From IMG/VR virus record IMGVR_UViG_3300005083_000031: a DNA stretch of 64,000 bases; one strand, 5' to 3'. This document shows, piece after piece, positions 4,535-54,073 of the stretch (its first letter is position 1; each line of letters begins with the position of its first letter). The notes beneath the pieces were generated by a model that worked only from the letters and a program-made list of their open reading frames with translations, made no database searches and had not been told where the DNA came from. The stretch comes from an uncultured virus (IMG/VR IMGVR_UViG_3300005083_000031). Its lineage: Duplodnaviria; Heunggongvirae; Uroviricota; Caudoviricetes. A program made the translations under genes and the position numbers.

Positions 4535-4550
4535 TCGGCGGGAGACCGAA

Positions 4551-5249
4551 ATGGCAAACGTCAATCTGTTCTCCGGCGGGACCGCGGTCTTCAAGCCGCT
4601 GTTCTGCAACGACGACGTCCGGGAGTGGACGCCGCCGGTGAACGGGGTGGAGGTGGACTACACCCCTCCCTACAACAGCCACATGGCGGGGCACTTCGCC
4701 CAGGGCTTCTACACCTTCGGCTTCCCCGTCGTGCCCAACCTCAACAACTACGCCGGGCACCACTGGATGCAGACGGCCCTCAAGAAGGTGTCGGCGGTCA
4801 ACGACCGCATCCGCCTCTTCTGGGTGCCCATGCGCTCCTACGTGACCCACATGCACTTCGAGGTGACGAGGATCGACACGACCCTCTCCACCGTGCAGGT
4901 GCAGGTGTCGGCGGAGCGCTGCACGTGGGACGCGGAGGCCGAGGACTGGGTGTGGGCGGCCAACGCCGCCTTCGACACCGACGTGGCGTCCCTCGGGACC
5001 TTCGGCCTCGGGGCGACCCAGACCGTGATGTCCAAGATGACGGCGCTGCCCTCCAGCTTCACGACCGGGGTGCCCAGCACCTTCGGCCTGAACATCGACC
5101 AGGGCGACGGCTCGTACGGCGTCGTGGTGGTGGGGCTGAAGATCACGGCCGGTTCCTCGGCGCAGCTCAAGGCCCTGTGGAAGGGGGACTTCTGCGCGTA
5201 TCTCTCCGCGAAGGTGGAAGCCTTCGGATGCCCGGTCCAGGCCGGATAA
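4551..5249 (+). CDS. Putative capsid decoration/minor head protein
   Basis: GGGAG RBS; beta-rich 232 aa directly after capsid gene. Confidence 0.55.
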   Translation: MANVNLFSGGTAVFKPLFCNDDVREWTPPVNGVEVDYTPPYNSHMAGHFAQGFYTFGFPVVPNLNNYAGHHWMQTALKKVSAVNDRIRLFWVPMRSYVTHMHFEVTRIDTTLSTVQVQVSAERCTWDAEAEDWVWAANAAFDTDVASLGTFGLGATQTVMSKMTALPSSFTTGVPSTFGLNIDQGDGSYGVVVVGLKITAGSSAQLKALWKGDFCAYLSAKVEAFGCPVQAG

Positions 5250-16461: not shown

Positions 16462-17210
16462 GCCCCGAACAGTACATCCAGCTCCAGCATCTGGGCACCG
16501 TGCCGTCCTACAACGGACTGGCGCAGGGCGGAGGTCCCGTCGTCCTGTCGATCCCCCCGCGCACGCAGTACATGACGGTCGCCGATCTCCCCCGCCCCGT
16601 CTACACGCAGCTCGGGGCGGCGGCGAGAGGCTCTGGCGGCGGCGGCGGCAAGGGCGCCGGGACGGCGCCGGCGAAGAGCAAGGAGGAGAAGGAGAAGGAG
16701 AAGGTGGAGCGGGCGTACAACAGGAAGCCCTACGATGGCAGCGAGGACTACAGGCGCGAGAGTCCGAAGCCGCTCAGGAGGGATTCGACGATGCCTCGCG
16801 GCGCGACGAGGTGGAACAGGTTCGCCGAAGGGGCGGGTGATCCGGTCGGTCTTGCGTACGACTACCTGGGCGCCGGACAGGGTGTCGCCGACTCGCTCAA
16901 GTCGCTGAGCCCGGAGCAGCGGGCGGAGACGATGGAGGGGCTCAAGCTCTTCGGCGAGCTGGCGCTCACGCAGATGTCGGGACTGGGGCTGATTTCGCTG
17001 GCCCGACGCTTCCAGAACATGCTCGCGGGCCTCCGGGTGGGCAAGAAGCTGCTTCCCCCGACCACCTTCCAGCAGCCGACGGGCCTCAATCCACGGCAGT
17101 ACCCGTGGGTGCGGCAGGGGACGCCGGGCTCGATGGTCAACAACTCGGGTCCCGCGCACGCCCCGACGCCGCCCTGGTATCAGAATCTTGTGAGGGGTGC
17201 GACGCCATGA
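16458..17210 (+). CDS. Putative internal virion protein
   Basis: ATGA-coupled at both ends. Confidence 0.55.
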   Translation: MSPEQYIQLQHLGTVPSYNGLAQGGGPVVLSIPPRTQYMTVADLPRPVYTQLGAAARGSGGGGGKGAGTAPAKSKEEKEKEKVERAYNRKPYDGSEDYRRESPKPLRRDSTMPRGATRWNRFAEGAGDPVGLAYDYLGAGQGVADSLKSLSPEQRAETMEGLKLFGELALTQMSGLGLISLARRFQNMLAGLRVGKKLLPPTTFQQPTGLNPRQYPWVRQGTPGSMVNNSGPAHAPTPPWYQNLVRGATP

Positions 17211-29200: not shown

Positions 29201-30094
29201 TTCGGCATCATGGCCGCCGTCGTCAACGACGCCATGGACCGGGGGCTGCTGAGCGGACAGGACGCCGCCATGGAGATGGTCGCCACCCTCGGCAAGGCCA
29301 TGTTCCCCGACCAGCGCCCCGAGTTCGCCGTCACGAAGGACCCCTTCGCATGGTTCCTCCGGGCCCTCCTTCCCCAATGGATGGCGCCCGTCGCCGAGGT
29401 GGCCACCAATCGCGACTACCAGGGCAACGTCATCAGCTACGCGAAGGGCGACGGCAGCACCGCCAAGGCGTATCAGGGCTCCTTCTCGACGCCCAAGATA
29501 TTCCACGACATGTCGCAGGGCCTTCTGGAATGGACGGGCACGGACACGGCCCCCGAACAGCTCAAGCACGGCTTCTTCCAGCTCGCCGCCGGGCCGCTCT
29601 CCTGGCTGCGGGACGTCGTCCGCATGCAGCAGCCCTACAAGGGCATCGTCGCCTACGACGACGCCAAGATAAATCCGTGGCTCAGGGCCCTGGGGGCCGG
29701 GATGATCCTGACGCCCCGCTACACCGGCAGCTACGGGGCGTTCAACCAGGCGTACGAATCCGTCAAGAGCCGGATCCGCGAGGCGGGGATCAAGATGACC
29801 GACCCGAAGAACGTCGGCAACCCCCTCAAGGCGAGGCAGTTCTGGACGAACCAGTTGGCCGCCGCGGGATTCGACAACGACGACATACAGACCTTCCTCG
29901 TCGGCCACGACACCGAGACCGCCGTCCGCAGGATGACCAACGACTTCGCCAAGCAGTGGGGCGACATCTACCGCCGGTCCGAAAGCACCCAGGATCTGGA
30001 GGCGCCGCTTCGGGAGCTTGAGGAGAAGCAGGCGGAGCTCTACGAGGACGCGGTCAGGAACATGCCATACTGGCAGAGGTTGAACGCGGCATGA
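17207..30094 (+). CDS. Giant (~4295 aa) internal virion / large polyvalent protein with zincin HExxH module and LPD38-like C-terminus
   Basis: Single open frame; ATGA-coupled start; hydrophobic Gly/Ala N-terminal segments; HEVTH at 21593-21607; C-terminal 'P..EVATNRDYQG..I...TP' pattern. Confidence 0.85.
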   Translation: MTGWEIPQVPAIPDPFKSGGGDDGLSLLRMAQGMLGRRGGGGGGGGAIFDPDIGDYVNIPGDTASERQANFEAWKQWQLNQKLAALEEDPEVGDAVKALRNPEGLSTKKAKEEIAKLRAAIPAAAARHKISPALLARAVVDPIEKANEKRAADAFSLGTELHAAALSAKQSLKGSVDAIRDAMPWSTEEEQFQRWQQRLKDEEEDRKRNAYLQERTLRIAEAQQADPEGMHQLDYFLENPLGETLVGFGHAAPLIGGMAAAGPAAGLLGPLGGAAMLGANTALFAAMGAQEAQQAAFERIKQSNPGMSDAEAWEQANEASGAGALGGAVAGAAPFGIARGVGAMGIRAPQLLARAQMAAGKGAGAEALKKATADLPNMMLGTANRVAPKAEAAVLKIARESLGAEVKAAGGTADDYLARLITTPIPKAAQTPAMARAQALAEMYNKRGFIGRTVAHTPQTLADLEAMHIANELGRNAGIAQATGEPMEGVGLEGMLTTAATALPFAMMGGIRKPKVPVGEMVPKPKTTDTGKGGTDAAPVEGVGGTALPQDVLDLDPSAPDYEARLYQLFDRDARTDVDVSEDYLGAYTDFKKHLEKVGADLSKKKSKMSPDRFIQEAFRFGENADLDVEDNVWMRTLRAAREVVMLAPPEYRGAAVRETMNMLRWLETKSGYGFKSERGAGHFSIADAFLTYLAHPERFEEVDANGRRNIHLFQKRGGAPIDAAAWVKSGGGDAGAGVREKVERVGKANSIDEYVDFIDSMVAFDELFSNKDGTPISPFLASGKPNPTFRKRFAEWLQLSKHYKKGDQKTLDRLLARVANRWNRKFADMGTEGETDQTGQKGGKKGGKKGGKKGAKPKVQNEVTFDSKDHAGIKNVSYDIRKDKFKKGSVIVLEDGTQFDLSGKKFFEGLQEAMAQMKDPAYAQKLVKVMSDKLAAVMEANEKAKGGKKGKKGGKGDEEGKGDEEGKGDEEGEGEGEGEGEGEGDGVSLSDAFKSFDLDKGTFGDGVRVRLKDGVVVNIKNTRELFNNPQYDALTKEEKTALSYEYGEAISEARAPRAERFIKAPDPSKPWQQFVANRLVPLYKGARLITIGWPAGRAVVLVDAYGFKIPFYLSTGDGKKLDVPHGKWFPFFGYGGPGFGRGWFNKTHGKDMNAFYGIPELGEIAEALNEMIGDIRPVKERGRGANQNDLINLDMVKDPEGNLSGNIPESDHLDVMDLINSSFEEVVTSVMFDVERQSDRVKANIKRVAEHFNAMRNAPPTVTSQSRNPDAASFQGRLDSLGLLRTGTWVKNSLGDDIVDIGGMTLDQAASAIDKTFLDRFYDGAINLWNTTPRENGTIKWDLNTVENLYNEFISKIPWNPFDTRENAINTFKEFVGTDAGGEVRFGNLGAGGRYLFEDVQIDALMNLFESMQGTIPMSTYQMVKWLSPRFEPIEGETRAEQNFLYLRFDPSYSLRPGSYIHEVTHMLAKNTPVIKDPNERAKHRNPMWELYDALFGGSGWEPMLSDPNSYGYRYLDDVVSIHKALTRFVKTSMSPDPNNAGDVFLFNNHSLSFYQYLHRATEVVARVADMYFNRMIGREAILNESPESSKAMIEFHEPYYKLLEPIFDKLCKRGAYAPRITNPNLTTSGSLEDSGNGARRGGNTASAEEGVHHGGYREDEPSFGGEAGGVGEGAAQPSVRAGAAGYGGDIGQALGRADLSGGGAGLDTLVIDKSITLDALRTFTDKLGIKLEPPKPEPEPEPGAEEAEFETEDRRPSKLNLPGHVESVRESTDVRPRTDEEVRKAREGIAAAQGKAPTDEDGALFEPHKIDPDNLFHGEGIELPAGIGKAVEVEWVPVLDDEGEPAHDKRGNPILRERLVRGPMPLWQGRTIPNFVLLWHASHGNKDALRELAGTYQMLAHSPVARREAYLIGQLMAPAYYVLDPGTFGDVLKKALKDINVRTKHRDFRRIFEATYAQMMEKLVSSENVTYLHRMNVIEDNIDIIRAMEDSDDIAEIAGRQIAELKAGIILAYQRARTQGLTKAMKESELPVLKGTSESERQDLIELGRWMSRIDWTRREINDMVERGTVGWHLDSSDPMSPHYISAAMRRKALLKLADEAAGVQAPKGGSASRKRGVIDMVVASVGEEGEQLFDGGVSDDGSRFEIRRMVDPNTVIFTETDPDTGEIGGWDEPIWKFVQGGEESEAMTLEDAFASTDPHGDLAKHTFAVFQQIVDPRDEQGRPVHSDVFISDYVPKEAADTPAGRQWTKELEAQLVKDRDNSARFAKATERRYKLYKQKEESYEKVAAEYFPVQERWNDFQLMDRIEREFGGLAGLRKEYEDAVAEFNALDDAKVRNERRALVKQYAELVSMREGDELVANRKGAESEDAQALRQRIRELDPRAAAEKVLLANDRVQVALDIVKQLRKTVGDRKYDDVREEWKRRYDNAYDAKWNAQAELVKAQAGYEMMRDLLFQQSSRYASRLEMRDMMTGKARLKGSDGWLFPPTIPGEQLVWVDTVGMIFNEKTGKKEPTYEFNHNYWGGRPLPSDGHLVITSSKIDGRIPSQFSKVWSVWDRTTGRYLYSEAAGGTDMTMRQAINLAREIYEDGINLMYMTGQLVKSDWAGVDASQVYDVWTPVEDGFHTDMDSKEAASNDALRKARYRRQKEGTRDYPEGQEPVENLRWHTDTDYRELQGRIVLADFYQRHPELDPKSELFDPAIRLTREEVKKLQVQDHVDYLTMWDTRHSLLAALGAMRTRGAXXRGGVPMTFIRLLPGIGDGLTPEQMRDAKLISISAPDTARQKLTGAKGVVLDRSKSKAKEYEPTDVWQQRWKVTHGDKVVLENVTVAEALDYIRDYLMPGRTTEEREANLRRSFVTNMSGNLIGGPRVAQAYAIREGDIEAAFKAASEHAANPSPDVKEKVINYLTKVLNGDTGTVLAYKFRMWAANAGLPADQRLPFWDDYQATLGKANSQEKLQAFNYLSRALKDNRNVEVQKELMSQLQTLLINGPTARRADLGFLDEKNIYRSTVNPVSADTLDNIRRFAKLAGKWGDPTPYRRMAKFYEKRMEREEEAERIAEIRERERKAAEEMRREERMRDIIRREREAKLTEEAAKEERENQRKELERQHQEIRKMQRKPQPFGTATRYFRPTGDDRLAIVSDGMVVKNGLVYAADGTTLLGERHTFDPRVYFTLNPDNPEAFQLTPDHVINWKTQMVYERDSVGKGMEVGFITDDLATVDETVKRYIQAALAEQAPPAQDVSSNDMPPDLTSADWAPRAGLDAAEQTDIRDGADPVAAARPARTVPDWKTEAMDMARMKEPERQAAVADIAKYASGSTYEQDKGVLAKASYWLAEKFVDYTAPVKALFNGVTNPMEGGRLTQTFELMQSRTNGMRVKFLTDIVQPLDDLLTKQAKALGVGVDEWKETVADYGNARHALVEGNARLVEQLKEDLRQALADDNTKRASQINRKLKLVKEHLEDEVNLNKAGKALAPMAMGYTNAQARTRMRELEGRYGVDVLNEGADAYVQAFRSILMERVRAGLMTEEELARFPNFKYYLPAITKAEDLASAMNDAHVYSPGGYFTRHGSYQRPDSQWNNLQRYLVKVATEIGSGEFLDTLFALHQAGVLPEDAIMSHSYGALMAMRAGHNSGLSLIMREMANKGFRYRGTKIDEKTGEEKPHLYWIGFNPLWKDDVLGIDGGKLTDAILPIAKGDPGLKGLGKVTSKFGQLFTRFIPFFAVVNSHRDGLERAANMASRKYLKEDGTLIEGSSLLPSFFAETAGLTVPGRMSDFLAGRVDPNSEMGRLWTEFRNNGLFQDMTPGTSLLAQRLNPKELKPRERKGLAGFWQAVDVLDGARKKIVYGVLDQWNLKWNTTPAFAQYIAMRKAGMSERNAAHATLELMNLYQKGTLNNLLSAVFPYVRPVVQSGVNILRSVGLGGKVQNQGRLKQGLKGTAVMLSAMVAMQALIQMQREALGQNADGTWEYDRLTPSQKSRYIHISRDIQIPTTFGPASFGIMAAVVNDAMDRGLLSGQDAAMEMVATLGKAMFPDQRPEFAVTKDPFAWFLRALLPQWMAPVAEVATNRDYQGNVISYAKGDGSTAKAYQGSFSTPKIFHDMSQGLLEWTGTDTAPEQLKHGFFQLAAGPLSWLRDVVRMQQPYKGIVAYDDAKINPWLRALGAGMILTPRYTGSYGAFNQAYESVKSRIREAGIKMTDPKNVGNPLKARQFWTNQLAAAGFDNDDIQTFLVGHDTETAVRRMTNDFAKQWGDIYRRSESTQDLEAPLRELEEKQAELYEDAVRNMPYWQRLNAA
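19727..19775 (+). repeat. 12-bp coding tandem repeat (KGGK)n
   Basis: aagggcggcaag repeated about three times. Confidence 0.8.
20041..20165 (+). repeat. Coding low-complexity repeats (GKGDEE)3 and (GE)n
   Basis: Direct reading of sequence. Confidence 0.8.
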
Positions 30095-35181: not shown

Positions 35182-35367
35182 CTACCCCCGTGATGTCCTG
35201 AGGTTGTCGATGAGTTCCCGGATGTTGACGGGAAGGGCCTCGGCCGGGGCGTCCCTGAGCATCCCCTCGAGAACCCTCGCCACGTCCCACGCCGAGACGG
35301 TGACGATGACCATCCTGCCGCCGTCCTTGCGGTCGACGGTCTGCGAGAACGTCCGTATGTCCGTCAT
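35182..35367 (-). CDS. Hypothetical protein
   Basis: Coupled small ORF with RBS. Confidence 0.55.
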   Translation of the reverse strand: MTDIRTFSQTVDRKDGGRMVIVTVSAWDVARVLEGMLRDAPAEALPVNIRELIDNLRTSRG

Positions 35368-43848: not shown

Positions 43849-45261
43849 CTAGTCCGTTTCGGGACACCCCCCGTCGAGGTCGGGGTGCGACGCCGCCATG
43901 GCGTACCTGGAATCCATGTTGCGCCTGGTCACCCAGTGCCTGAACTTCACCTCGTCGGCGAGGCCGGGGAAGCCGTCGGGCACCCGCCCCTCGCCCCGGG
44001 CCCAGCGTGCCAGCGTGCTGCGGGCGATGCCGCTGATCCTCGCCGCCTCCCTGACCGACAGGTCGGGCACGGGCCTCGGCTCCGCCTTCCCCCCGACGAT
44101 GCGCTCGTACACGGGGGGCCTGTCGCGCTCCCGCATGGCGTCGCACATGTCGGCCCACGCCTGCATCAGGCCGATGCGCTCGGCGAGGTAGCAGCTCCGG
44201 GCGTAGACGCCCCGCACACCGGGGATGGTGTGGGCCAGCGCCGCCTCGATGTAGTCGGGGGGATACCCCGCCTCGTGCAGGAGGGTGGAGGCGCTGGCCC
44301 GGAAGCCGTGCGGGTCGTGGTCCTCCACGCCCATGGCGCGGAGCGCCCTTCGCCCCGTGTCCCTGTTCATGAAGCCCCCTCCCTTCCCGGGGAACAGGCG
44401 CCCCGTCCTCGCCGTGAAGGGGCGCAGCTCCTCCAGCAGGGCCACGGCCTGCCGGGAGAGGGGGACGACGTGCTCCCTCTCCGTCTTCATCCTCTCGGCG
44501 GGGATGCGCCACACGGGGCGTTCGCCGTGCAGGTCGAACTCCCACCACAGGGCCTTCGCCAGTTCGGACGGGCGGCACATGAGAAGGGGGAGGAGGCGCA
44601 GGTACTGCCTCGTCAGCGGGGCGCAGTCCCCCTCCTCTATGATGCGGAGCAGTTCGCCGAAGGTCTTGGGGTCCGTCCGGGCGGCGCGGTTCTCCGTCCT
44701 GTGGCGGGGAAGGGAGCGGGTCATCCCGGCAAGGGGGTTGAACGGGGCGAGTCCCTCGCTCACGGCCCTCTCGAGCACGCGGGTGGCCAGCTCCACCGTC
44801 TGCCGCTGCACGTAGGGCGTCATCCCCCTGATGCAGTCGAGGACGGACTCCCTCGTGATGGCGGAGACGTCGGTGTTGAACAGGGGGCGGAGCCTGCCGG
44901 ACTGCAGGTCGTAGCTCCGCATCGTTCCGGGGGTGCAGGTGCGGGCGGTGTCCTCCCGCCATCGGGTGACGGCCTCGCCGAAGGAGCGTCCGTCCCTCGC
45001 CCTGCGCCCCCTCGGGTCGAGCCCGCCCTTCAGTCCCTTGCGCATGCGGGCGTGCATCAGTCTCGCCTCGTCGAGGGAGATCTCGGGATACTCCCCCAAC
45101 GTACATGTGAATGTTCCGCCGCCAAAGGAGTAGGCGTAGCGGAACACCAGCTCCCTCCCGTTGAGATCGACGTACAGGCCGTGCCCGTCGAACACCTTGA
45201 GACGCCCGTTCCACGGGACTCCCGGCCGCATCGTCCTGAGATCGCAGTCTTGCAGTCGCAT
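43849..45261 (-). CDS. int: P4-family tyrosine integrase with C-terminal HTH extension
   Basis: Arm-binding 'DGHGLY...LGEYPEISLDEAR'; catalytic R(PSE), K, HGFR, LAH, Y. Confidence 0.92.
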   Translation of the reverse strand: MRLQDCDLRTMRPGVPWNGRLKVFDGHGLYVDLNGRELVFRYAYSFGGGTFTCTLGEYPEISLDEARLMHARMRKGLKGGLDPRGRRARDGRSFGEAVTRWREDTARTCTPGTMRSYDLQSGRLRPLFNTDVSAITRESVLDCIRGMTPYVQRQTVELATRVLERAVSEGLAPFNPLAGMTRSLPRHRTENRAARTDPKTFGELLRIIEEGDCAPLTRQYLRLLPLLMCRPSELAKALWWEFDLHGERPVWRIPAERMKTEREHVVPLSRQAVALLEELRPFTARTGRLFPGKGGGFMNRDTGRRALRAMGVEDHDPHGFRASASTLLHEAGYPPDYIEAALAHTIPGVRGVYARSCYLAERIGLMQAWADMCDAMRERDRPPVYERIVGGKAEPRPVPDLSVREAARISGIARSTLARWARGEGRVPDGFPGLADEVKFRHWVTRRNMDSRYAMAASHPDLDGGCPETD

Positions 45262-45499: not shown

Positions 45500-47497
45500 T
45501 CAGCATACCGTGTAGTCCTCCCCGATCTCGCCCTCGGCGGAGACCGGGAACCCCTCCGCCCACGGCGGCACCGTCGACATGATCCTGACCATCGTCGCCA
45601 GCGCGTCCTCCGCCTCCGCCTCGGGCACCACGCAGAACCAGCAGTCGTGCACGTTCCCGGCAAGCTGCAGCCCCGCCTCCCGCATCCGGCACGCCTGCCA
45701 CATCAGCACGTGCATCGACAGACCCTGTATCACGTTCTCGCACACCTTCCCGCCGTACAGTCTCGTCTCCACCTTGCGCCCCCTCGAGTACGCGTCGTAC
45801 CAGAACTCCCCGTCCACGAACCGCAGCCCCGGGTACAGCGTCTTCCACCCGCAGGGGAACCTCAGCCCCGGCACCGGCCACCCCTCGCCGGGGATGCGGA
45901 TGCGCCCCGCCTTCACCAGCTCCCCGGAGGGCCCGCCGAAGGACGTCACCCCGCACCTCGGCTGCACCAGCCTGCGCAGCACGCTCTCGCACAGCCTCCA
46001 GAAGTCCACGATCCTCGCGTTCATCATCCTGTACTTGCGATGCACCTTCAGCGCCTCGGCGTCGTGCGCCGTCCTGTCCTCCCCGAACCTCACCTTCTCC
46101 TTCACCCACAGGGTGTCGGCGAACTTGGTCGCGCCCACCCCGTACCCCGCCGAGAGGATGGCGGTCTTCGCCGCCTGCCTCGCCTTGTACATGGCCTCGT
46201 CGTGGGCCTTCGCCCCCGCCCGTATCTCCTGCCACGTTTTCCCCGGCGTGAAGGTGGCGGCGAGGATGGCGTAGGGATCCTGTCCCTCCCTGAACTGGGA
46301 GACGAGGTCGTCCTGCCCCGCCACCCACGCCAGCATCCTCGCCTCTATCTGCGCCGAGTCGCACGCCACTATCTTATATCCAATGGGCGCCCTTATGCAC
46401 CTGCGCAGGCGCACGTTGCCGCTGCGCTTGCCGAGGTTCTGGAAGTTGAGGCGGTCGCCCCTGCCCCTGTCGCCCGACCCGGCGGCGTACCGTCCGGTCC
46501 TCGCCCCGAACACGGCGAGGCCCACGGGCACGGGGCGGCCGTCCGCCCCCACCTCCAGCAGCCTGTCGCACCGGGTGCGCTCGATGCTGCTGGCCTCGCC
46601 GACCCTCGCCTCCGCCAGCATGCGCACCACCTCGTCCTCGTGCTCCAGCAGCTCCTGGAATCCCGGGTCCGTCTTGGCGAAGGCGTAGTCCTCCTTCCCC
46701 GTGGTCGGGCTCGTCTTCATGGGCGGCTCGACGCCCAGCCTGCGAAGCATCTCGGCGAACCTCGCCTTGCTCCTGAGCGCCTTCCTGAAGGCCTCCCTGT
46801 CGGAGAAGCCGTGCTCCGCCATGGTCTCCGCCATCCTCCGCCCGGACTCCTCCTTCAGGAACCGGGCGTACTCCCGCAGCCCCGGCATGTCGAGGACCAG
46901 CCTCGGCCGCGTGTACATGCGGGTCGTGATGTCCGTGAAGAGGAAGGCGTCCCTCGTCACGTACGGCTTCAATTCGTTGAAGATCCTCGCCGTCATCTCC
47001 ACGTCGTTGGCGCAGTACTTCCTGAAGTCGCGCCACTCCTGCTCCGTGAAGTCCTCCTTCCTCCGCTTGCCGCTGGACACCACGGTGCCCGTCCCCTTGG
47101 TCATGCCGAAGCGCTGGCCCAGCGCCTTCAGGCTGGTGGGCCCGAGCTGCCCGAGCCCCGCCCACTGGGCCATCGCCCACGTGTCGATGTACAGGCGGGG
47201 CACCCGGCCCAGCCTCTCCGCCAGCACGAACCCGTCGAACATGACGTTGTGGCAGAGCAGATTGTCCCTCGACAGGGGAGGGAGGGGAAGGGGATCGGAC
47301 ACCCCCGGGTTGGCGTCCCACACCTCGATCGGGCCGTGGCCGATCGTGCGACCGGCGCCCCCCACCCCGTCCACCGTGCACATCCCGGCGCACAGCAGAC
47401 GGAAGCGGGGGTCGCGAACGTACGAGATCACGCCCATGTCGGACAGCGTGTACTCGTCCTTGTCCCAGTAGGTCTCGAAGTCCATGCAGTATGTCAT
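45500..47497 (-). CDS. polA: Family A DNA polymerase with 3'-5' exonuclease
   Basis: DFET, HN..FD, DSAQIEAR (motif A), R...K...L..GYG (motif B), VHD (motif C). Confidence 0.93.
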   Translation of the reverse strand: MTYCMDFETYWDKDEYTLSDMGVISYVRDPRFRLLCAGMCTVDGVGGAGRTIGHGPIEVWDANPGVSDPLPLPPLSRDNLLCHNVMFDGFVLAERLGRVPRLYIDTWAMAQWAGLGQLGPTSLKALGQRFGMTKGTGTVVSSGKRRKEDFTEQEWRDFRKYCANDVEMTARIFNELKPYVTRDAFLFTDITTRMYTRPRLVLDMPGLREYARFLKEESGRRMAETMAEHGFSDREAFRKALRSKARFAEMLRRLGVEPPMKTSPTTGKEDYAFAKTDPGFQELLEHEDEVVRMLAEARVGEASSIERTRCDRLLEVGADGRPVPVGLAVFGARTGRYAAGSGDRGRGDRLNFQNLGKRSGNVRLRRCIRAPIGYKIVACDSAQIEARMLAWVAGQDDLVSQFREGQDPYAILAATFTPGKTWQEIRAGAKAHDEAMYKARQAAKTAILSAGYGVGATKFADTLWVKEKVRFGEDRTAHDAEALKVHRKYRMMNARIVDFWRLCESVLRRLVQPRCGVTSFGGPSGELVKAGRIRIPGEGWPVPGLRFPCGWKTLYPGLRFVDGEFWYDAYSRGRKVETRLYGGKVCENVIQGLSMHVLMWQACRMREAGLQLAGNVHDCWFCVVPEAEAEDALATMVRIMSTVPPWAEGFPVSAEGEIGEDYTVC

Positions 47498-47579
47498 TCG
47501 TCGCTCCTTGTGTGGGGGGCGGCGGCATGCCGCCCCCCCCTTACCAATTCTATTCCTCGTCCTCGTCGCCGTCCACCTC

Positions 47580-47864
47580 CTATCGGCTCGGGGCCATGTC
47601 GTGCACGACCCCCTCGACGGCCTCGGCCACGAGGCACGCCTCGCAGTCGGGGTGGACCCCGTGCTCCGGCGAGCACGCCCCGTACCCGGGGTTGTACCTG
47701 CACTTCCTCGTGTCGGGGTCGTACCCGCCGCAGATCTCCGGGAAGTCGGACTCGTGGGGGCGCCTGTAGTTGGCGGCCAGCCACCACACCACCTTCCGCA
47801 GATCCCCGGCGGACATCCCCTCCACCACCATCCTCGCCGCCCATGCCGTGTTGATGTCAGTCAT
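47580..47864 (-). CDS. Cys-rich hypothetical protein
   Basis: GGAGG RBS; ends 'PDCEAC', similar to 'PDCAAC' in 48279-48554. Confidence 0.6.
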   Translation of the reverse strand: MTDINTAWAARMVVEGMSAGDLRKVVWWLAANYRRPHESDFPEICGGYDPDTRKCRYNPGYGACSPEHGVHPDCEACLVAEAVEGVVHDMAPSR

Positions 47865-48003
47865 CGCAAGCCTCCCTGTTGAAGTCCGGATCCGTCATCT
47901 CGTCCCGGTCGTACATCCACCCCGGGCAGTCCCCGTCGTCCTCGTCCCCGTCCTCGTGGTCCCACTCGGGCGGGTACTGGAGCTTCCAGTCGTCGTAGGT
48001 CAT
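47857..48003 (-). CDS. Small acidic protein (MTYDDWKLQYPPEW...)
   Basis: ATGA coupling; GGAGG RBS. Confidence 0.55.
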   Translation of the reverse strand: MTYDDWKLQYPPEWDHEDGDEDDGDCPGWMYDRDEMTDPDFNREACDD

Positions 48004-48269
48004 GAGGAGCCTCCCTGCCTGATCACGGCGTCGCCGATCTCGTTCCACACGAGCGCCATCTCCTCGTCGTCGAGGCGCACCTCGTCCATGTGCATCTCGA
48101 GAACGAACCCGTCCTGGGTCGTGATGGCGTACACGTCGTGCACGATCTCGGTCCCCGCCTCGTTGAAGATGTAGAAGGTGTACTCCACGCCCTTGAGGGG
48201 ACGCTCGATGACGTTCGCCACCTTGCAACCCTCGGGCAGCCACTGCCTCACGATTTCCCGTCCGTCCAT
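48000..48269 (-). CDS. Hypothetical protein
   Basis: GGAGG RBS. Confidence 0.6.
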   Translation of the reverse strand: MDGREIVRQWLPEGCKVANVIERPLKGVEYTFYIFNEAGTEIVHDVYAITTQDGFVLEMHMDEVRLDDEEMALVWNEIGDAVIRQGGSS

Positions 48270-48278
48270 GCGAACCTC

Positions 48279-48554
48279 CTACATGTTTCCGCAGACCACG
48301 CAGGCCGCGCAGTCCGGGTAGCCGTTGACGTGGTGCAGCACGCACCTCGGGGTGTCGAAGTCGGCGCACCGGGTGCCGAGGTAGTCGTCGGCGAACTGCT
48401 GCGCCACCCTCCAGAGCAGCGCGATCAGGTCGTAGGTGCCGCTGCGCTCGACCACCATGTTCTGGACCTCCTCGCTGTTGGGCCTGCGCCCCCGCCCGAC
48501 GAGGTAGCCGTCCTCGTCGAGGCGGAGCGTGTCGTTGTCGATGATCTCAGGCAT
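48279..48554 (-). CDS. MPE-array member 9 (MPEIIDND..., 91 aa)
   Basis: GGAGGAGG plus ATGCCTGAG; Cys-rich C-terminus. Confidence 0.75.
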   Translation of the reverse strand: MPEIIDNDTLRLDEDGYLVGRGRRPNSEEVQNMVVERSGTYDLIALLWRVAQQFADDYLGTRCADFDTPRCVLHHVNGYPDCAACVVCGNM

Positions 48555-48759
48555 GGGATTCCTCCTCCAGTCGGTTGATGAAGGCCTCGTTGTTGACGCA
48601 CGGCGTGTCCGGGACGGAGCACCTCCGCTCCACCAGGGCCCATCGCCCGTGCGGCATGCGCAGCTCCCGCATGTGCTCGCAGAGCAGCGTGATCGTGCTG
48701 CTCCTGCACCGGGGCATCGCATCCACATCCAGCTCCACGGTCCTGAAGATCTCAGGCAT
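48547..48759 (-). CDS. MPE-array member 8 (MPEIFRTV..., 70 aa)
   Basis: ATGCCTGAG junction; 4 Cys incl. Cx6C. Confidence 0.75.
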   Translation of the reverse strand: MPEIFRTVELDVDAMPRCRSSTITLLCEHMRELRMPHGRWALVERRCSVPDTPCVNNEAFINRLEEESHA

Positions 48760-48979
48760 GGGCGTCCCCCCTCCTGACGATCTCGTACTGCTCGGAGCAC
48801 TGCGCCTCCGGGTCGCCGCAGAGAACGCACCCCCCGCTGATGAGGTAGGAGGTGCAGGCGAAGGCGGAGGGCCTGTCCCTGCACCCCAGCCTGTTCTCCG
48901 CATGGAGATGGCGGCGGGCCCGGAGCATGACGCCCTCCAGCATCGAACGCTCGGAGCGCCTCTCGAATATCTCAGGCAT
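48752..48979 (-). CDS. MPE-array member 7 (MPEIFERR..., 75 aa)
   Basis: ATGCCTGAG junction; ENRLGC...Cx6CxxQ. Confidence 0.75.
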   Translation of the reverse strand: MPEIFERRSERSMLEGVMLRARRHLHAENRLGCRDRPSAFACTSYLISGGCVLCGDPEAQCSEQYEIVRRGDAHA

Positions 48980-49187
48980 GGTCCCCCCTCCCCCGGCCGA
49001 CCCGCTGGAGCGGGCACCGGATCTCGTAGTCGGCGCAGTGCCACACCTGACCCATCCTCTCCACGATGCCCCGACACCGGGGCGTCGACGCCACCATCCC
49101 GCACATGAGGCGGTCCTCCTTCCAGAGTCCGTGCCTCCGTTCGGGGTCGTTCAGCACGTGCTCGTCGGTCTCGATGATCTCAGGCAT
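48972..49187 (-). CDS. MPE-array member 6 (MPEIIETD..., 71 aa)
   Basis: ATGCCTGAG junction; EDRLMC...Cx6CxxQ. Confidence 0.75.
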   Translation of the reverse strand: MPEIIETDEHVLNDPERRHGLWKEDRLMCGMVASTPRCRGIVERMGQVWHCADYEIRCPLQRVGRGRGDHA

Positions 49188-49413
49188 AGAATCCCTCCCT
49201 CTGCTCCTCGCAGCGCTCGGTGTGTCGCTGGCACATCGCCGCCAGCTCGCGGTCCGGCCCCATCCGGTACACCCTGTAGTCGCACCGGATGCAGGCGTCG
49301 CAGGCGCACAGCAGGCGGTGCCGGCCCCAGAGATGGCGACGCCACGTGGCGTCGTCGAGGCGGGCGTCCGCCCCGGCCTCCCTCTCCTCCATGATCACGA
49401 ACGTCTGGGGCAT
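49180..49413 (-). CDS. MPE-array member 5 (MPQTFVIM..., 77 aa)
   Basis: TGATG junction; RLLC...Cx6CxxQ. Confidence 0.7.
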   Translation of the reverse strand: MPQTFVIMEEREAGADARLDDATWRRHLWGRHRLLCACDACIRCDYRVYRMGPDRELAAMCQRHTERCEEQREGFYA

Positions 49414-49646
49414 CAGTACATCTCCTCCATCCTTCCCCGCCTCAGGACCAGCAGGGTGTGGAAGTCCGCCTGGTGGGGGCAGTGCTCGTCGATCCGCGAG
49501 CACACGGGGATGACGTACCCCTCCGGGTGCCAGTCCTCGCACTCCTCGTGCCGCCCCAGCAGGGAGCACACGAGATTGCGGGCCTCGTAGAGCCGCACCC
49601 GCTCCTCCCTGTCCTCCATGTCCGCGATCTTGAACATCTCAGGCAT
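49413..49646 (-). CDS. MPE-array member 4 (MPEMFKIA..., 77 aa)
   Basis: ATGCCTGAG junction; NLVC...Cx6CxxQ. Confidence 0.75.
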   Translation of the reverse strand: MPEMFKIADMEDREERVRLYEARNLVCSLLGRHEECEDWHPEGYVIPVCSRIDEHCPHQADFHTLLVLRRGRMEEMY

Positions 49647-49911
49647 TTCCGTCCCTCCTCTCGAGGATGAGAATCCTCGTCATGAGTTCCTGCACCACCT
49701 CGAACAGCGGCCGCCCGAACTCGGTCGGCGCGTACCTCAGCGCCAGGTTGAAGTTGTCGTTGAAGTCCTCCCGGGTGACCATGTCCCGCCGCACCGCCGA
49801 CACGGCGTCGTCCACGGACTGCACGCTCGCCATCGTCGAGCACCAGTACTGCCCGTGGTTCGCGACGATGGCGTGGCCCCTGTCGGCGGGGTCGTCGAAC
49901 AGCTCAGGCAT
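49639..49911 (-). CDS. MPE-array member 3 (MPELFDDP..., 90 aa; only one Cys)
   Basis: ATGCCTGAG junction. Confidence 0.7.
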   Translation of the reverse strand: MPELFDDPADRGHAIVANHGQYWCSTMASVQSVDDAVSAVRRDMVTREDFNDNFNLALRYAPTEFGRPLFEVVQELMTRILILERRDGNA

Positions 49912-50131
49912 CCCCCGCCTCCAGCGGACGGTGGTGCTCGCACGCCGTGTAGTACAGCGTGCACCGGATCTGTCCGTCCGGGAACTCCCGCCGCCACGAC
50001 ATCCCGCCCACCGTGGCGCAGGCGGAGCCGGGGAAGGCGCACCCCATGCGGTCCTCCGAGACGAGGCGCTCCCGCTCCCGGGTCCGGTGGTGGCTCACGG
50101 CCGCCTCGTCGGCTCTGAATATCTCAGGCAT
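49904..50131 (-). CDS. MPE-array member 2 (MPEIFRAD..., 75 aa)
   Basis: ATGCCTGAG junction; EDRMGC...Cx6C. Confidence 0.75.
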   Translation of the reverse strand: MPEIFRADEAAVSHHRTRERERLVSEDRMGCAFPGSACATVGGMSWRREFPDGQIRCTLYYTACEHHRPLEAGDA

Positions 50132-50342
50132 CCTGAATCCTCCTCATCTGCACAAGGTTCCAGTCAACGTCGGGGTCGATGCGCATCTGGCCGCACCGGC
50201 GGTCCGCGACGTGGCACCGATGGCCCGCCGAGCACCTCAGGAAGCCGGTCTCCCTGAGGGCGAGCCTCATCTCGTGGATCCCGAGGAGCGTCTGGTCCTT
50301 CAGGGACACCTCGCTCTCGTCCACCTCGAACATCTCTGGCAT
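50124..50342 (-). CDS. MPE-array member 1 (MPEMFEVD..., 72 aa)
   Basis: GGGAGAG RBS; ATGCCAGAG start; Cx5Cx6C. Confidence 0.75.
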   Translation of the reverse strand: MPEMFEVDESEVSLKDQTLLGIHEMRLALRETGFLRCSAGHRCHVADRRCGQMRIDPDVDWNLVQMRRIQDA

Positions 50343-50391
50343 GTCTCTCCCCTGTTGCGAGGGGGGCTCGCGCCCCCCTCGGCTGACGTCG

Positions 50392-50766
50392 CTATCCCGG
50401 GTACGGGACGTGGCACATGCGGCCCTCGGGGTCGAGGGCGCACACCGGCTCGGCGAAGGGGGACGACAGCCAGTTGTCCTGGATGCGTCCCGCCTGGCAC
50501 TTCGAGCACACCTCGTCGCCCGGCTGGGCCGCCACGTTCCTCTGCCACCAGTCGTAGTACTCCCACCCGCCCTTCGGGCGGGGCTCGTCGGGGAAGCGCA
50601 CCCACGCCTCCTCCTTGAGCCTCCACTCCTCCTTCACCCTCTCGTACTCCCTGATCATCTCCTCCCTCTTCCGGTTGCGGGCCTCGATCTCCTCGGGGGT
50701 GGGGATGTCCACCTCGACCTCGATCATGACGCCATCAATCCTCTCGACCATCTGCCTCGTGAGCAT
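50392..50766 (-). CDS. Hypothetical protein with Cys-containing C-terminus (MLTRQMV...)
   Basis: AAGGGGG RBS with CAACC leader. Confidence 0.6.
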   Translation of the reverse strand: MLTRQMVERIDGVMIEVEVDIPTPEEIEARNRKREEMIREYERVKEEWRLKEEAWVRFPDEPRPKGGWEYYDWWQRNVAAQPGDEVCSKCQAGRIQDNWLSSPFAEPVCALDPEGRMCHVPYPG

Positions 50767-51025
50767 GGGTTCCCCCTTGCGGTTGAATGGTCTCGAACGC
50801 GTACCATCCGTGCATCCACTTCTGCAGGTACGCGTCCACCGAGACGGCCATCGTCTGCAGCATGCGATGGCCGTCGTCCTCCCTTCCCTCTCCGAACGCC
50901 GTCCACGAGTCCCGGAGGAGGCGGCGCAGCGTGGCGTAGAGTTCCCGCCTCGCCGCCGCCCCCTCCCTGCGTCTCGCCGCCCGGCGCTCGATGCGTCTCG
51001 CGACCTCATCGTCCCGCGGCATCAT
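50735..51025 (-). CDS. Hypothetical protein
   Basis: GGAGG RBS; coupled. Confidence 0.55.
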   Translation of the reverse strand: MMPRDDEVARRIERRAARRREGAAARRELYATLRRLLRDSWTAFGEGREDDGHRMLQTMAVSVDAYLQKWMHGWYAFETIQPQGGTHAHEADGRED

Positions 51026-51341
51026 CCCTCCTGTCCCAGCGGTTCCCGGCCTTGACGCCCCGCCAGGCGATGTACAGCTCCTTGTCCATGAGGCCCGCCC
51101 TCTCCGTCTCCTCCATCACCTCTCGCATGATGTCGGCGATGTAGTGGCAGCGGGCGGCCCAGCGCCTGTGGGGCGCCGGGTCGCAGGCCTCGGGGGAGAG
51201 GGCCGCCACGAGGGCCACCTGGGCCAGCCCGCTGCGCACGGCGTCCTCCTCCCCCACCACGACCGCATGGTAGCGGCCGACGTCCTCGTTCTCCATCCTC
51301 TCCCTGTAGGTGAGGTTGATGTTGATCACCCATTCCTTCAT
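51006..51341 (-). CDS. Hypothetical protein (MKEWVININL...)
   Basis: ATGA-coupled to amidoligase stop. Confidence 0.55.
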   Translation of the reverse strand: MKEWVININLTYRERMENEDVGRYHAVVVGEEDAVRSGLAQVALVAALSPEACDPAPHRRWAARCHYIADIMREVMEETERAGLMDKELYIAWRGVKAGNRWDRRDDAAGR

Positions 51342-53173
51342 ACGGCCATCGCCTCCTCCCCCACGGCGTGAAGGGACATGGTCGGGCCGCCCCACAGGAT
51401 GCGCCCTCCCTCGAAGGAGCGGGCGCTGACGCCCCTCCCCCGGCCGAACTCGTAGAGCCTGTCGTCGCGCAGCGGCACCGACGTCACGCCCTCGTCGTCG
51501 CCCGTGAGCTGGAGGACGCGCAGGCTGTCGCCGTCCATCCACATGGCGGACCACACCTCACCCGACCAGCGCATGCCCCGTCCCTCGCCCGGCGCCTCGA
51601 GGGAGCGGGACGTGATGGTGTCCAGGCGTCCGTCCTCGGTGGCGCGAATGGCGTTGGGCACCCATTCGAGCATGTCGGTGCGGCACATCCCGACCAGCCA
51701 CTCGGCGGTCACCGTCACCCCGCCGAAGGTGAACGTGCGGGTGAAAGCGTCCCGTCCCCGCTCGAAGAGGGTGGGCGTCATGTCCCTGCCGCCCGACGGC
51801 ATGACTATGACGTACCCGTCCCTGATGACCGTCGCCACGCTCCCCACGGGGAAGCGGGTGCGCATCGCCGGGGGCTCGGGGATGCGGGTCTCCTCGCGGC
51901 GCCCGGGGCTGTCGAAGTCGTGCGACACCAGCAGCCCGGTGGCGAGCCACGTGGCGAACTCGGGATATCGGCTGTCGTTCATGGCGTATTCCCTGAATGC
52001 GTTCCACTCGTCCTCGTCCCCCTTGTAGAGGACGGGGTTGTCGCGGGTGAACTGGTGCGTGGCGTGCACGCCCTCGATCATCCGATAGAACTGGTCGATG
52101 CCGTCGGGGGCCACGCATCCCCTGACCTCGACGGTCTTGCCGCCGTTGCCCGTGGCCCAGTTGACCAACTGGTAGCGGTCGTTGCGGCGCATGGCCTCGC
52201 GGATGAGGGCGCGCATCCCGCCGTAGCCCCACGCCACCTTGGCGTAGCCCCCGCTGTAGCGGCGGCACAGGTTGCACAGCCTCCTGTTCCAGAAGTGCTC
52301 GCTCCAGAAGGAGTGGAAGGACTCCTTGTGGGCCTCCCCCATCATGGACGAGCTCAGGTGGATGTGCATGCTCGTCCCGCTGGACTGGGACGCCTCGATG
52401 ATGTCGAGGAACGCCTCCAGCTCCTCCCGGGACTGCTTCCAGTACCTGAGCGTCAGCGGATGGGAGACCCATTCCGCCCCGTTGCGGAGGGAGCCGTCGC
52501 TCTTGGCGTAGAACACGCCCCTCATCATGCCGGACTCCCCGGCGGTGCGGAGGATGCGGGTCAGGCCCGAGGAGTACTCCCTCTCGATCTCCACCCCGAG
52601 GTAGAGGTGGGGCGAGGGCTCGTCGTCAAGCCTGCGGCAGTCCGCCTTGGGCTTGAACGAGTAGCTATGGAGCATGCCCTCGGCCTCGACGTCGCCCGCC
52701 CGGGCGTCCTCGTCCCCGTCCCCGACCCAGTCCGAGACGCGGATGTCGTCGCGGAGGGCGCCGGCGTCCTCGGCGCAGCTCTGGCTGCAGTACAGGCGGT
52801 CGTCCGACCCCCTGTACTGGTCCTCGTCGTCCTCGTGGAAGGAGTCGCCGCACGAGGGGCACGTCTCGTAGTGGTAGTCGTAGCACCTCTGGCAGACGGT
52901 CTCGTCGGTGCGCTCGATCCACGTCGTCTCCGACCGGAGGACGCTGTTGTGGCAGTTGTCGCACACCGTGACGTCCTCGGCGCATCCCTCGCAGAGGAGC
53001 AGGACGCCGCCCCTGCGGTTGGTCCAGCGGTGCATGCGGGCGGGGCCGGGGATCTCCCCGCACGCCATGCACATGCCCTCCGGGGCGTTCCTGTACATGG
53101 CGTCGAGGGCCTCGGGTCCCAGCTCCCAGAGGGCCTCCAGATCGTGACGCTCGGGCATGGTGAAACCGTTCAT
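51338..53173 (-). CDS. Amidoligase (glutamine synthetase-fold COOH-NH2 ligase) with N-terminal zinc-ribbon repeats
   Basis: YLGVEIE, KSDGSL, GAEWVSHP, MHIH, DRY..VN, TVEVR motifs; multiple CxxC. Confidence 0.85.
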   Translation of the reverse strand: MNGFTMPERHDLEALWELGPEALDAMYRNAPEGMCMACGEIPGPARMHRWTNRRGGVLLLCEGCAEDVTVCDNCHNSVLRSETTWIERTDETVCQRCYDYHYETCPSCGDSFHEDDEDQYRGSDDRLYCSQSCAEDAGALRDDIRVSDWVGDGDEDARAGDVEAEGMLHSYSFKPKADCRRLDDEPSPHLYLGVEIEREYSSGLTRILRTAGESGMMRGVFYAKSDGSLRNGAEWVSHPLTLRYWKQSREELEAFLDIIEASQSSGTSMHIHLSSSMMGEAHKESFHSFWSEHFWNRRLCNLCRRYSGGYAKVAWGYGGMRALIREAMRRNDRYQLVNWATGNGGKTVEVRGCVAPDGIDQFYRMIEGVHATHQFTRDNPVLYKGDEDEWNAFREYAMNDSRYPEFATWLATGLLVSHDFDSPGRREETRIPEPPAMRTRFPVGSVATVIRDGYVIVMPSGGRDMTPTLFERGRDAFTRTFTFGGVTVTAEWLVGMCRTDMLEWVPNAIRATEDGRLDTITSRSLEAPGEGRGMRWSGEVWSAMWMDGDSLRVLQLTGDDEGVTSVPLRDDRLYEFGRGRGVSARSFEGGRILWGGPTMSLHAVGEEAMAV

Positions 53174-53209: not shown

Positions 53210-54073
53210 CTATCCTGCGATCAGGGCCCTGGTGAACTCGGCGTCCTTCCGTTTCTCCTCCCTCTCCTTCTCCGTGGCGGGGACGCGGAGGAAGTAGTCG
53301 TCGAGGACCCAGCAGAACTCGAGGTCCCCGTCGCACGGATGCTTGACCTTCGGGTCGGCGTACTCGCAGCGGTCGCGCCAGTAGCACACCCTCGGCTCCT
53401 CGGGGATGTGGATGTCGTTCCATTCGGAGCAGACCGGGGTCAGGTAGCTGTTGTGGTTGTAGTTCCACACCTTCCCCTTCCCCTTGTAGGTCGGGGTGCA
53501 GGTGCTCCTCCAACTGGTGTTCGAGAACCTGAGCCCCGAGTCGGTGTCGAGGTGCCAGCCGTCGCCCCACCACGCGAGCTGGCGGCGGGGCCACGACCAG
53601 ACGATGATCCTCTGGCTGTGCATCATGGCCGACAGTCCCGGCAGCGACTCCTTGCAGAAGTCGATGTGGCGATGCGGCGCGAGCTGCATGCAGAGCTGAG
53701 CCGTGTCGCTCAGCCCGTCACGCTCGTGGTACTCGACCATGACCCCGTTGTGGACGAGGACCTGGTCGGCGATGTAGTCCAGCGCCCGAAGGTCGTGGAC
53801 ATTGTCGGACAGCGGGAACGGATGGGTCATCCTGATGCTGTGACCCGACGTGCTGACCCTGAAGTGGTACAGGGCGATGTCGTTGTCCCTGACGATGTCG
53901 CGGTTCACGTCGAGCATGCCGTGGAGGTCGAGGGCCTTCTGGACGTGAATGCCCCCGCCGTCGGGGTCGGGGTACGCGATGCCCCCGCCGTCGGGGTTCG
54001 CGTCCCACATGCGACGGATCTCGTCGTCCGTCGGCTTCCTAGACTTTCCATACTTCACGCAGATTACGCACAT
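53210..54073 (-). CDS. Class II (Ntn) glutamine amidotransferase
   Basis: N-terminal MC, NPDG.G, HFR.ST.G, HPF, HNG, SDT motifs. Confidence 0.9.
   Translation of the reverse strand: MCVICVKYGKSRKPTDDEIRRMWDANPDGGGIAYPDPDGGGIHVQKALDLHGMLDVNRDIVRDNDIALYHFRVSTSGHSIRMTHPFPLSDNVHDLRALDYIADQVLVHNGVMVEYHERDGLSDTAQLCMQLAPHRHIDFCKESLPGLSAMMHSQRIIVWSWPRRQLAWWGDGWHLDTDSGLRFSNTSWRSTCTPTYKGKGKVWNYNHNSYLTPVCSEWNDIHIPEEPRVCYWRDRCEYADPKVKHPCDGDLEFCWVLDDYFLRVPATEKEREEKRKDAEFTRALIAG

Follow-up and report, generated by a model that had tools for sequence, protein, structure and literature searches.

The described systems that come closest to the locus treated here are coupled termination-reinitiation gene pairs, the internal proteins of T-even phages, the start-associated sequence (SAS) of Cluster K mycobacteriophages and the promoter early stem-loop (PeSL) cassettes of T4-type phages. 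The locus itself is an array of nine small genes, called m1 to m9 from upstream to downstream, which lie head to tail on the minus strand at 50342-48279 of a 64,000-nucleotide (nt) stretch of DNA, hereafter the window, from an uncultured member of the Caudoviricetes (IMG/VR record IMGVR_UViG_3300005083_000031). With a probability of roughly 60%, we read the array as small accessory genes of a phage's early/replication operon that multiplied in tandem, are coupled in translation and encode proteins that probably bind zinc.

In termination-reinitiation pairs, known with overlaps of -1, -4 and -8 nt, co-directional genes are placed so that the stop codon of one lies inside the start region of the next, with the Shine-Dalgarno sequence in the upstream coding sequence; the stop/start distance that marks such pairs runs from -8 to about +10 nt, and -8 counts among the overlaps treated as predictive of coupling (PMC10666635). 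The array shares both the layout and the position of the ribosome site, and its -8 and -1 overlaps fall within that range. It departs from the usual coupled pair in reusing one identical 8-nt overlap, together with seven further conserved bases, seven times in a row, and in doing so with the rarer -8 class; coupling in the array is predicted from its anatomy.

The T-even internal proteins that carry a capsid targeting sequence are likewise diverse small proteins with only a short N-terminus in common, and those of T4 counter host restriction, according to the accessible portion of the source (PMC3012670). In the array, unlike in these proteins, the shared part is five residues long and mostly fixed or limited by a gene overlap, and the genes belong to a replication operon.

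Short asymmetric repeats at translation starts, confined to the non-structural arm and preceding different gene families, are also what the SAS of Cluster K mycobacteriophages amounts to, as described in the text available of that report (PMC3203893). However, the SAS is 13 base pairs (bp) long, lies 3-7 bp upstream of the start and is dispersed, whereas the array repeat starts with the ATG itself, is read in two frames and is limited to consecutive junctions. The SAS consensus GGGATAGGAGCCC (up to two mismatches) has two matches in the window against 3.0 expected, neither of them in the array. PeSLs, in turn, resemble the array in being short conserved cassettes that bound small, non-essential, fast-changing genes and are reshuffled by recombination. 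The excerpted account describes them as intergenic units of promoter and terminator (PMC2839356); the array, in contrast, leaves no space between its genes and contains nothing that resembles a promoter or a terminator.

The architecture is not new in kind, since coupled overlaps, tandem small phage paralogs and start-associated repeats have all been described. No paper on this family or junction, nor on tandem arrays of small phage paralogs with coupling, was found in open-access text. An initial annotation, made from the letters of the window, had not recognised the array as a described system. That holds for the protein family, which has no match in the libraries searched, and fails for the architecture, which recurs in related phages.

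Nine coupled genes

All nine open reading frames (ORFs) proposed in the initial annotation are present, with starts at 50342, 50131, 49911, 49646, 49413, 49187, 48979, 48759 and 48554, and they encode proteins of 70-91 amino acids (aa). The G+C content at third codon positions is 0.89-0.98 in each frame, compared with an overall G+C content (GC) of about 0.67 in the window; this is a strong coding signal, and these are therefore coding frames. From m1 to m9 the proteins begin MPEMF, MPEIF, MPELF, MPEMF, MPQTF, MPEII, MPEIF, MPEIF and MPEII, exactly as had been listed. The spacing of 205-265 bp is reproduced by a 17-nt junction that is repeated nine times at intervals of 205, 220, 208, 226, 233, 265, 220 and 211. 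That the genes are coupled agrees with their layout: seven of the eight internal junctions are 8-nt start/stop overlaps, and the eighth, between m4 and m5, is the 1-nt overlap TGATG. Between 47400 and 54500, a scan found no terminator-like site and one promoter-like site, which lies outside the array, so that none falls within it.

The junction and the shared N-terminus

At the seven 8-nt junctions the upstream frame ends ...NAT GCC TGA and the downstream frame begins ATG CCT GAG. The same letters, ATGCCTGA, thus open one gene and close its predecessor, and the upstream TGA occupies bases 6-8 of a 15-nt island of conservation at the downstream start. A purine run of the GGAGG type precedes each ATG by 5-9 nt, within the last codons of the preceding gene. 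This arrangement writes part of both protein ends. For the downstream protein the overlap dictates Met1, the last base (T) of the Pro codon and GA in codon 3, which leaves Glu or Asp; upstream, it limits the C-terminus to [D/H/N/Y]-Ala, and the ribosome site makes the residues just before that C-terminal pair rich in Arg, Gly and Glu. The two starts that carry no overlapping TGA, those of m1 (CCA) and m5 (CCC, with Glu replaced by Gln through CAG), are also the only two that depart from CCT.

The island is sharply set off from its surroundings. Mean pairwise DNA identity among the nine starts is 0.854 at positions 0 to +15, and it is 0.352 at -30 to -1, 0.393 at +15 to +45 and 0.344 at +45 to +75, against an in-phase background of 0.332 (standard deviation 0.087). 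Allowing one mismatch, ATGCCTGAGAT occurs eight times in the window, every time at an array start, where 0.75 occurrences are expected and the maximum in 100 shuffles is three. The stretch that is identical at the junctions measures 11-15 nt. Overlaps of 8 nt number nine in the window, seven of them being ATGCCTGA in the array and two lying elsewhere; outside the array the usual overlap is the 4-nt ATGA (21 candidates listed).

The overlap accounts for eight of the 15 conserved bases, the other seven being the third base of codon 3 and codons 4 and 5. Replacements at codons 4 and 5 are mostly conservative (Ile, Met or Leu, once Thr, at the former; Phe or Ile at the latter), with a hydrophobic residue at position 4 in eight of the nine members and at position 5 in all nine. 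Without that overlap, m1 and m5 still encode Pro2, through synonymous codons. The "constant tag" of the initial annotation is therefore in good part dual coding and largely a by-product of the junction. The shared pentapeptide is real, but for part of it no tag function is needed, the overlap fixing M1, the T of the Pro codon and the acidic residue 3.

Other explanations of the junction were set aside. A conserved RNA structure was rejected because the aligned flanks are not conserved. The start regions are weakly structured (mean -11.0 versus -16.2 kcal/mol, standard deviation 5.1) and show a dip in GC at +9 to +14, and other starts of this phage are alike. Programmed +1 frameshifting that would fuse the nine ORFs was dismissed by reasoning, as a ribosome site and an ATG are present for every one of the genes and re-pairing from GCC to CCU is unfavourable. 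Two further minus-strand genes, at 47580-47864 and 35182-35367, start MTDI (ATGACTGACATC and ATGACGGACATA) at stop/start overlaps, a pattern that resembles M-P-E-I. Overlaps seem to shape N-termini across this phage.

Paralogy of the bodies

For the tests of the bodies the first six and the last eight residues, which are the junction-coded ends, were removed. Leave-one-out profiles were scored against 2000 composition-preserving shuffles per member, and the number of shuffles reaching the real score was 0 for m2, 47 for m4, 7 for m5, 0 for m6 and 1 for m7. In 78 pairwise Smith-Waterman tests covering the nine members and four neighbouring genes (1000 shuffles), the six best pairs were m5-m6 (0 shuffles), m2-m6 (3), m2-m7 (5), m6-m7, m4-m6 (6) and m9 with the gene at 47580-47864 (6), all within 0-6 per 1000; every other pair was reached by at least 18. 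The pair m5-m6 is also found by BLASTP, with an expectation value (E) of 2e-5.

Cysteine spacing extends the picture. C-x6-C occurs in seven of the nine proteins, with the same heptads that had been read from the sequence before, where within-protein shuffles expect 1.39 (P of at least seven of nine about 2.5e-5). Likewise, the members for which they had been named do have the R[LM]xC motif and an xxQ behind the last Cys. The C-x8-C ... C-x6-C layout found in m4 and m6 recurs in full in m8, and m1 has a C-x6-C pair; on Cys spacing alone, m1 and m8 may be very diverged members of the core. The m3 protein has one Cys and nothing else in common with the core, to which, as far as these comparisons reach, it is unrelated. 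The body of m9 leads elsewhere: its residues 26-87 align with the product of the gene at 47580-47864 (BLASTP E 1e-4; phmmer E 0.006 among 116 ORFs), which stands outside the array, two positions downstream of m9. The array is thus a family of five demonstrable paralogs (m2, m4, m5, m6 and m7), probably of seven members, with two passengers that share only the junction. The serially expanded paralog family that the initial annotation proposed is supported for the five members joined by profiles and suggested, through Cys spacing, for m1 and m8; it is not supported for all nine.

Cysteine scaffold and predicted fold

Six of the nine proteins carry at least four Cys in the order C-x6-8-C ... C-x6-C; m1 has three, m3 one and m9 a different pattern. 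An AlphaFold2 model of m6 built on a seven-row family alignment is moderately confident (predicted local distance difference test, pLDDT, 73.5; predicted template modelling score, pTM, 0.59). It places a helix at residues 9-23, followed by four short strands that carry the Cys, and leaves residues 1-4 unstructured. The m8 model is of low confidence (pLDDT 52.5). The Cys scaffold probably holds one structural zinc.

Searches for relatives of the family

The family appears to be without relatives. Pfam, PHROGs and NCBIfam gave nothing significant for any of the nine proteins. WhiB gave no Pfam match at E up to 1 for any of the nine, the one row returned being an unrelated F-112 entry (E 0.29), and the family profile had no match among PDB sequences at E up to 10. 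Against 1.84 billion representative proteins the profile had eight matches at E up to 0.001, seven of which were the family itself; the eighth (P0008, 150 aa, E 5e-4) is internally repetitive and was judged spurious. A word-indexed profile search of 5.8 billion clustered proteins yielded seven of 208 candidates, all self. The best ESM Atlas scores, 0.76 for m6 and 0.87 for m3, lie below the level that is meaningful. For the m6 model, Foldseek against the PDB and a search of BFVD each returned nothing at E up to 0.001, and a wide VIA-align run against the PDB returned nothing at Z of 2 or more. The Cys-rich family is thus, at the sensitivity available, an orphan.

Searches with the junction DNA gave no relatives either. 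A single-junction pattern met at least 114 loci in IMG/VR and was uninformative; among the matches listed, each has one copy of the 11-mer except one locus (L038), which has two. A double-junction pattern met four loci in IMG/VR, 11 in genome_contigs and 47 in metagenome_contigs, all of them intragenic or low-GC repeats unrelated to the array. Through the same pattern we came across a metagenome contig of 62% GC (L250:3840-4260, plus strand) with two tandem 62-aa ORFs whose near-identical starts read MPEME[ST]GSPD.

Similar arrays near polymerase relatives

The window carries a family A DNA polymerase gene 0.8 kilobases (kb) downstream of the array and in the same transcriptional direction. 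A search for related loci with this polymerase sequence alone found no relative; with a polymerase alignment, 80 IMG/VR loci around polymerases 33-44% identical to it were gathered as a comparison set. The family profile, run over the 15,633 ORF segments of these loci, had no match (best E 0.28). Small paralogs were counted in the 38 of the 80 loci that have at least 4 kb upstream of the polymerase (BLASTP E < 1e-4): seven loci have two or more, and five have three or more, upstream of the polymerase and on its strand. These counts are a lower bound because the window's own array is too diverged to pass so crude a BLASTP filter.

The clearest case is L159:765-3191 (plus strand), where 11 consecutive genes for proteins of 70-79 aa follow one another with a period of 209-240 nt, all beginning MK[IV] and often ending ...EPI. 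Seven of the ten junctions are ATGA overlaps, three subgroups are homologous by BLASTP, and identity is 0.66 in the start island against 0.28 in the flanks. This array lies 3 kb upstream of a polymerase 36% identical to that of the window; its family has no detectable relation to the window family (hhalign probability 0.04%). Chains of small proteins with a conserved N-terminus of 15-18 residues also lie upstream of polymerase relatives at L184:4444-8283 and L183:1-1208 (both plus strand), with the N-termini MKLILWPLFSSGYL... and MSVTVNVF.VC.GRF..., respectively, followed by variable low-complexity tails rich in Gly, Tyr and Asp. Upstream of the closest polymerase relative in IMG/VR there is a pair of Cys-rich paralogs of 80-84 aa (L124:2689-2931 and 4543-4812, plus strand), 38% identical and with several C-x6-C spacings, again with no detectable relation to the window core (hhalign probability 0.6%).

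Together with the array at L162, these loci resemble the one in the window in having head-to-tail genes for proteins of about 70-80 aa upstream of a family A polymerase and on its strand, with overlapping stops and starts, a short shared N-terminus and divergent bodies. They differ from it in that the proteins of L159 are not Cys-rich, those of L183 and L184 are rich in Gly, Tyr and Asp, and the overlap used is 4 nt.

Phage and genomic setting

The window has a GC of about 67% and is a phage stretch with an integrase, and the array sits in its early/replication arm (Table 1). Among 50,697 phage records, searched by megablast with 47000-52000, nothing matched and no close relative was present. 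With Pseudomonas KPP25-like and Rhizobium phages the polymerase shares no more than 31% identity, and with many uncultured contigs, many of them 60-70 kb long, 40-43%. No tRNA genes were found in the window.

The 611-aa protein encoded upstream of the array has no Pfam match of its own, but the sole homologue found, a 405-aa protein that aligns with residues 170-430 (E 5e-9), carries PF12224 Amidoligase_2. An amidoligase-like protein beside a GATase_6-like one is a pairing that we take to be of the kind described by Pfam for amidoligase neighbourhoods. A GC-rich hairpin of -25.4 kcal/mol (z -1.9; 8 of 200 shuffles fold equally well) lies between the upstream gene's stop codon and the m1 ribosome site and could be a processing or stabilising element, or a terminator lacking the U tract.

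Some further features of the phage may be recorded. The virion block contains a 4329-aa ORF (17105-30094, plus strand) with no PHROG match and with a C-terminal LPD38 "large polyvalent protein" domain (E 2.7e-13); inside it, the bin 20001-22000 has a GC of 0.517, its surroundings about 0.66. Within the replication operon, between the polymerase and the exonuclease, lies a tyrosine integrase of the P4 type (Arm-DNA-bind_3 and Phage_integrase; 43849-45261, minus strand), whose closest phage relatives, from phages of Proteobacteria, are about 33% identical. As the polymerase, too, has its nearest phage relatives there, the host may be a proteobacterium of high GC.

Table 1. Coordinates of the array, its start islands and other features of the window.
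Feature	Position	Strand	Description
m1	50124..50342	-	72 aa, first gene of the array; MPEMF, Pro codon CCA, without upstream overlap; Cys 37/43/50 including C-x6-C
m2	49904..50131	-	75 aa, core family; Cys 31/38/57/64
m3	49639..49911	-	90 aa, one Cys; only junction-coded ends in common with the others
m4	49413..49646	-	77 aa, core family; Cys 27/36/49/56; spacing x8, x12, x6 as in m6
m5	49180..49413	-	77 aa, core family; start MPQTF (ATGCCCCAG); 1-nt overlap TGATG with m4
m6	48972..49187	-	71 aa, hub of the core family; Cys 29/38/51/58
m7	48752..48979	-	75 aa, core family; Cys 33/42/51/54/61
m8	48547..48759	-	70 aa; Cys 18/27/47/54 (x8, x19, x6)
m9	48279..48554	-	91 aa, last of the array; junction-type N-terminus; body (residues 26-87) related to the gene at 47580-47864
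Nine 15-nt start islands	within 48540..50342	-	consensus ATGCCTGAGAT[ACG]TTC
Island copies, m1-m5	50328-50342, 50117-50131, 49897-49911, 49632-49646, 49399-49413	-	last copy (m5) most diverged
Island copies, m6-m9	49173-49187, 48965-48979, 48745-48759, 48540-48554	-	
94-aa Cys-rich gene	47580-47864	-	MTDINT...; body paralogous to m9; 8-nt start overlap ATGACTGA
Family A polymerase	45500-47497	-	
GC-rich hairpin	50357-50383	-	stem of about 10 bp, 4-nt loop, no U tract
611-aa protein	51338-53173	-	upstream of the array in the same operon; N-terminal Cys-rich zinc-ribbon-like repeats
287-aa protein	53210-54073	-	adjoins the 611-aa gene, same operon; weak GATase_6 hint (E 0.05)
Virion genes	1-32 kb	+	SU10-like portal/adaptor, internal virion protein, collagen-like fibres, 4329-aa ORF
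Early/replication genes	33-58 kb	-	DUF927 primase-helicase, helicase, PD-(D/E)XK exonuclease, tyrosine integrase, family A polymerase

Proposed mechanism and alternatives

On the reading that we prefer, an expanded and coupled set of accessory proteins, the array would have been built mostly by old tandem duplication of one Cys-rich gene of about 72 aa, whose product would have had a helix followed by C-x6-8-C, x11-19 and C-x6-C. One junction cassette, consisting of GGAGG, 5-9 nt and ATGCCTGA, would join the genes, and all nine would presumably be carried on one transcript. With TGA in bases 6-8 of the next gene, a ribosome is released 5 nt past the next AUG and near a Shine-Dalgarno sequence, and is thus able to re-initiate; to judge from this anatomy, termination-reinitiation would hand translation on from gene to gene. 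The hydrophobic pair at residues 4-5 would be kept by some further constraint beyond the overlap. The products would most likely be small binders of host or defence components. Parts of this have precedents. Amplifying a gene in tandem and letting the copies diverge is a known route by which phages adapt their counter-defence. The -8 nt overlap is the third commonest between co-directional genes and within the range taken as predictive of termination-reinitiation, and short overlaps are enriched among subunits of complexes, as stated in the accessible sections of one study (PMC10666635). T4 has been shown experimentally to acquire counter-defence through recombination-driven segmental amplification of a small gene, according to the part available of another (PMC9391042).

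Several observations weigh against this reading. An orthologous array was found neither in IMG/VR, genome_contigs and metagenome_contigs nor in the 80 polymerase-relative loci. Four of the nine bodies have no relation to the core in sequence or profile, so that a single expanded family would not account for the array as a whole: scored with the profile of the five core members, m1, m3, m8 and m9 are equalled by 980, 366, 1311 and 260 of 2000 shuffles, and hhalign gives these four probabilities of 0.2%, 0.4%, 0.3% and 0.1%, respectively. The Cys pairs are x6 to x8 apart, with no classical CxxC knuckle pair, and neither Foldseek, VIA-align nor BFVD matched the m6 model to any zinc fold. As overlaps of -8 nt re-initiate less efficiently than shorter ones, in the portion of the source at hand (PMC10666635), coupling efficiency does not explain why the -8 overlap is used seven times. 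Finally, with the overlap covering only part of the island, the conservative changes at codons 4 and 5 and the synonymous Pro2 would fit selection on the peptide.

This last point leads to the proposal that the N-terminal Pro-Glu-hydrophobic-hydrophobic (Met removed) is an address tag, either for capsid packaging and co-injection, in the manner of the capsid targeting sequence on T4 internal proteins, or for recognition by a modifying enzyme such as the amidoligase-like protein 1 kb upstream. The conservative replacements at residues 4 and 5 and the retained Pro2 speak for it, as do the position of residues 1-4 outside the predicted m6 fold and the presence of the 611-aa and 287-aa proteins in the same operon. 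We find it distinctly doubtful all the same, in that the overlap fixes or limits three of the five residues, five residues are short for a known targeting signal, and the array lies in a replication operon on the strand opposite to the virion genes. Moreover, the proteins scanned include no recognisable prohead protease or cleavage motif, the supposed modifying enzyme itself lacks a Pfam match, and the short shared start of L159, MK[IV], is also partly fixed by an ATGA overlap, which argues for an effect of the junction. In its strict form, in which a true label commits otherwise unrelated small proteins to one handling step (virion loading and co-injection, or covalent modification by the amidoligase-/amidotransferase-like pair) and the overlap evolved around the tag, we would give the idea little credence. 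Still less can be said for the nine products being precursors of ribosomally synthesised and post-translationally modified peptides, in which a constant leader would precede a variable core rich in Cys and the ligase-like enzyme nearby would carry out maturation. A tandem of small Cys-rich ORFs with a common start, and an amidoligase-like gene in the same operon, would suit such systems, but conservation ends after 15 nt, giving five residues against a leader of 15 or more, the products have 70-91 aa, and m6 is predicted to fold as a domain of helix and strands. No recognised maturase, protease or exporter occurs among the 25-26 neighbouring proteins scanned, where the amidoligase-like neighbour is only a lead, and the setting is a phage replication operon; this origin can hardly be credited.

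If instead the junction were chiefly a recombination linker, its direct repeats would let unequal crossing-over, or exchange during co-infection, add, delete, reorder and import cassettes, and the array would be an assembled collection. That the same junction stands on the unrelated bodies of m3 and m9, that the m9 paralog outside the array lacks the MPE start and aligns only from residue 26 of m9, as expected of a chimera, and that unequal exchange could act on nine direct repeats at a spacing of 205-265 bp are all consistent with this, and recombination at boundary cassettes is documented for the hyperplastic regions of T4-type phages in the available text on PeSLs (PMC2839356). We nevertheless regard it as unlikely. 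Homologous recombination would have very little to work with in an identical stretch of 11-15 nt whose flanks drop to background identity within 15 nt to either side, and recent conversion tracts have left no trace. The collections searched yielded no related array in which gain, loss or reordering could be seen, and five of the bodies are true paralogs, which simple duplication explains. The 15-nt island might also be a cis-acting operator on mRNA or DNA, through which a phage or host factor would switch the translation of all nine genes together. Operator-type translational switching has a parallel in the RegA repressor of T4. The island is sharply bounded, present in 8-9 copies, limited to one segment of the operon and runs 7 nt past what the overlap requires, and the 13-bp SAS repeats at gene starts of unrelated families have been proposed to act in translation initiation, in the passages available (PMC3203893). 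What varies, however, is the wobble position in codon 4 and first bases whose replacement is conservative in the protein, a pattern of constraint at the protein rather than the nucleotide level; the SAS consensus is absent from the array, and no candidate binding protein was identified. An operator of this kind is accordingly very improbable.

Significance

As an expanded set of coupled accessory genes, the array offers an explanation for an apparent protein tag: a fixed start/stop overlap and a ribosome site write part of both protein ends. Before termini that the members of a gene array have in common are taken for functional tags, this possibility should be checked. Taken together with L159, L183 and L184, the locus indicates that a loose group of phages repeatedly has chains of coupled genes for proteins of about 70 aa upstream of the polymerase gene, with different sequences each time. 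Small genes amplified in a lineage-specific manner are good candidates for binders that act in host takeover or counter-defence, and the array supplies nine ready-made variants for screening.

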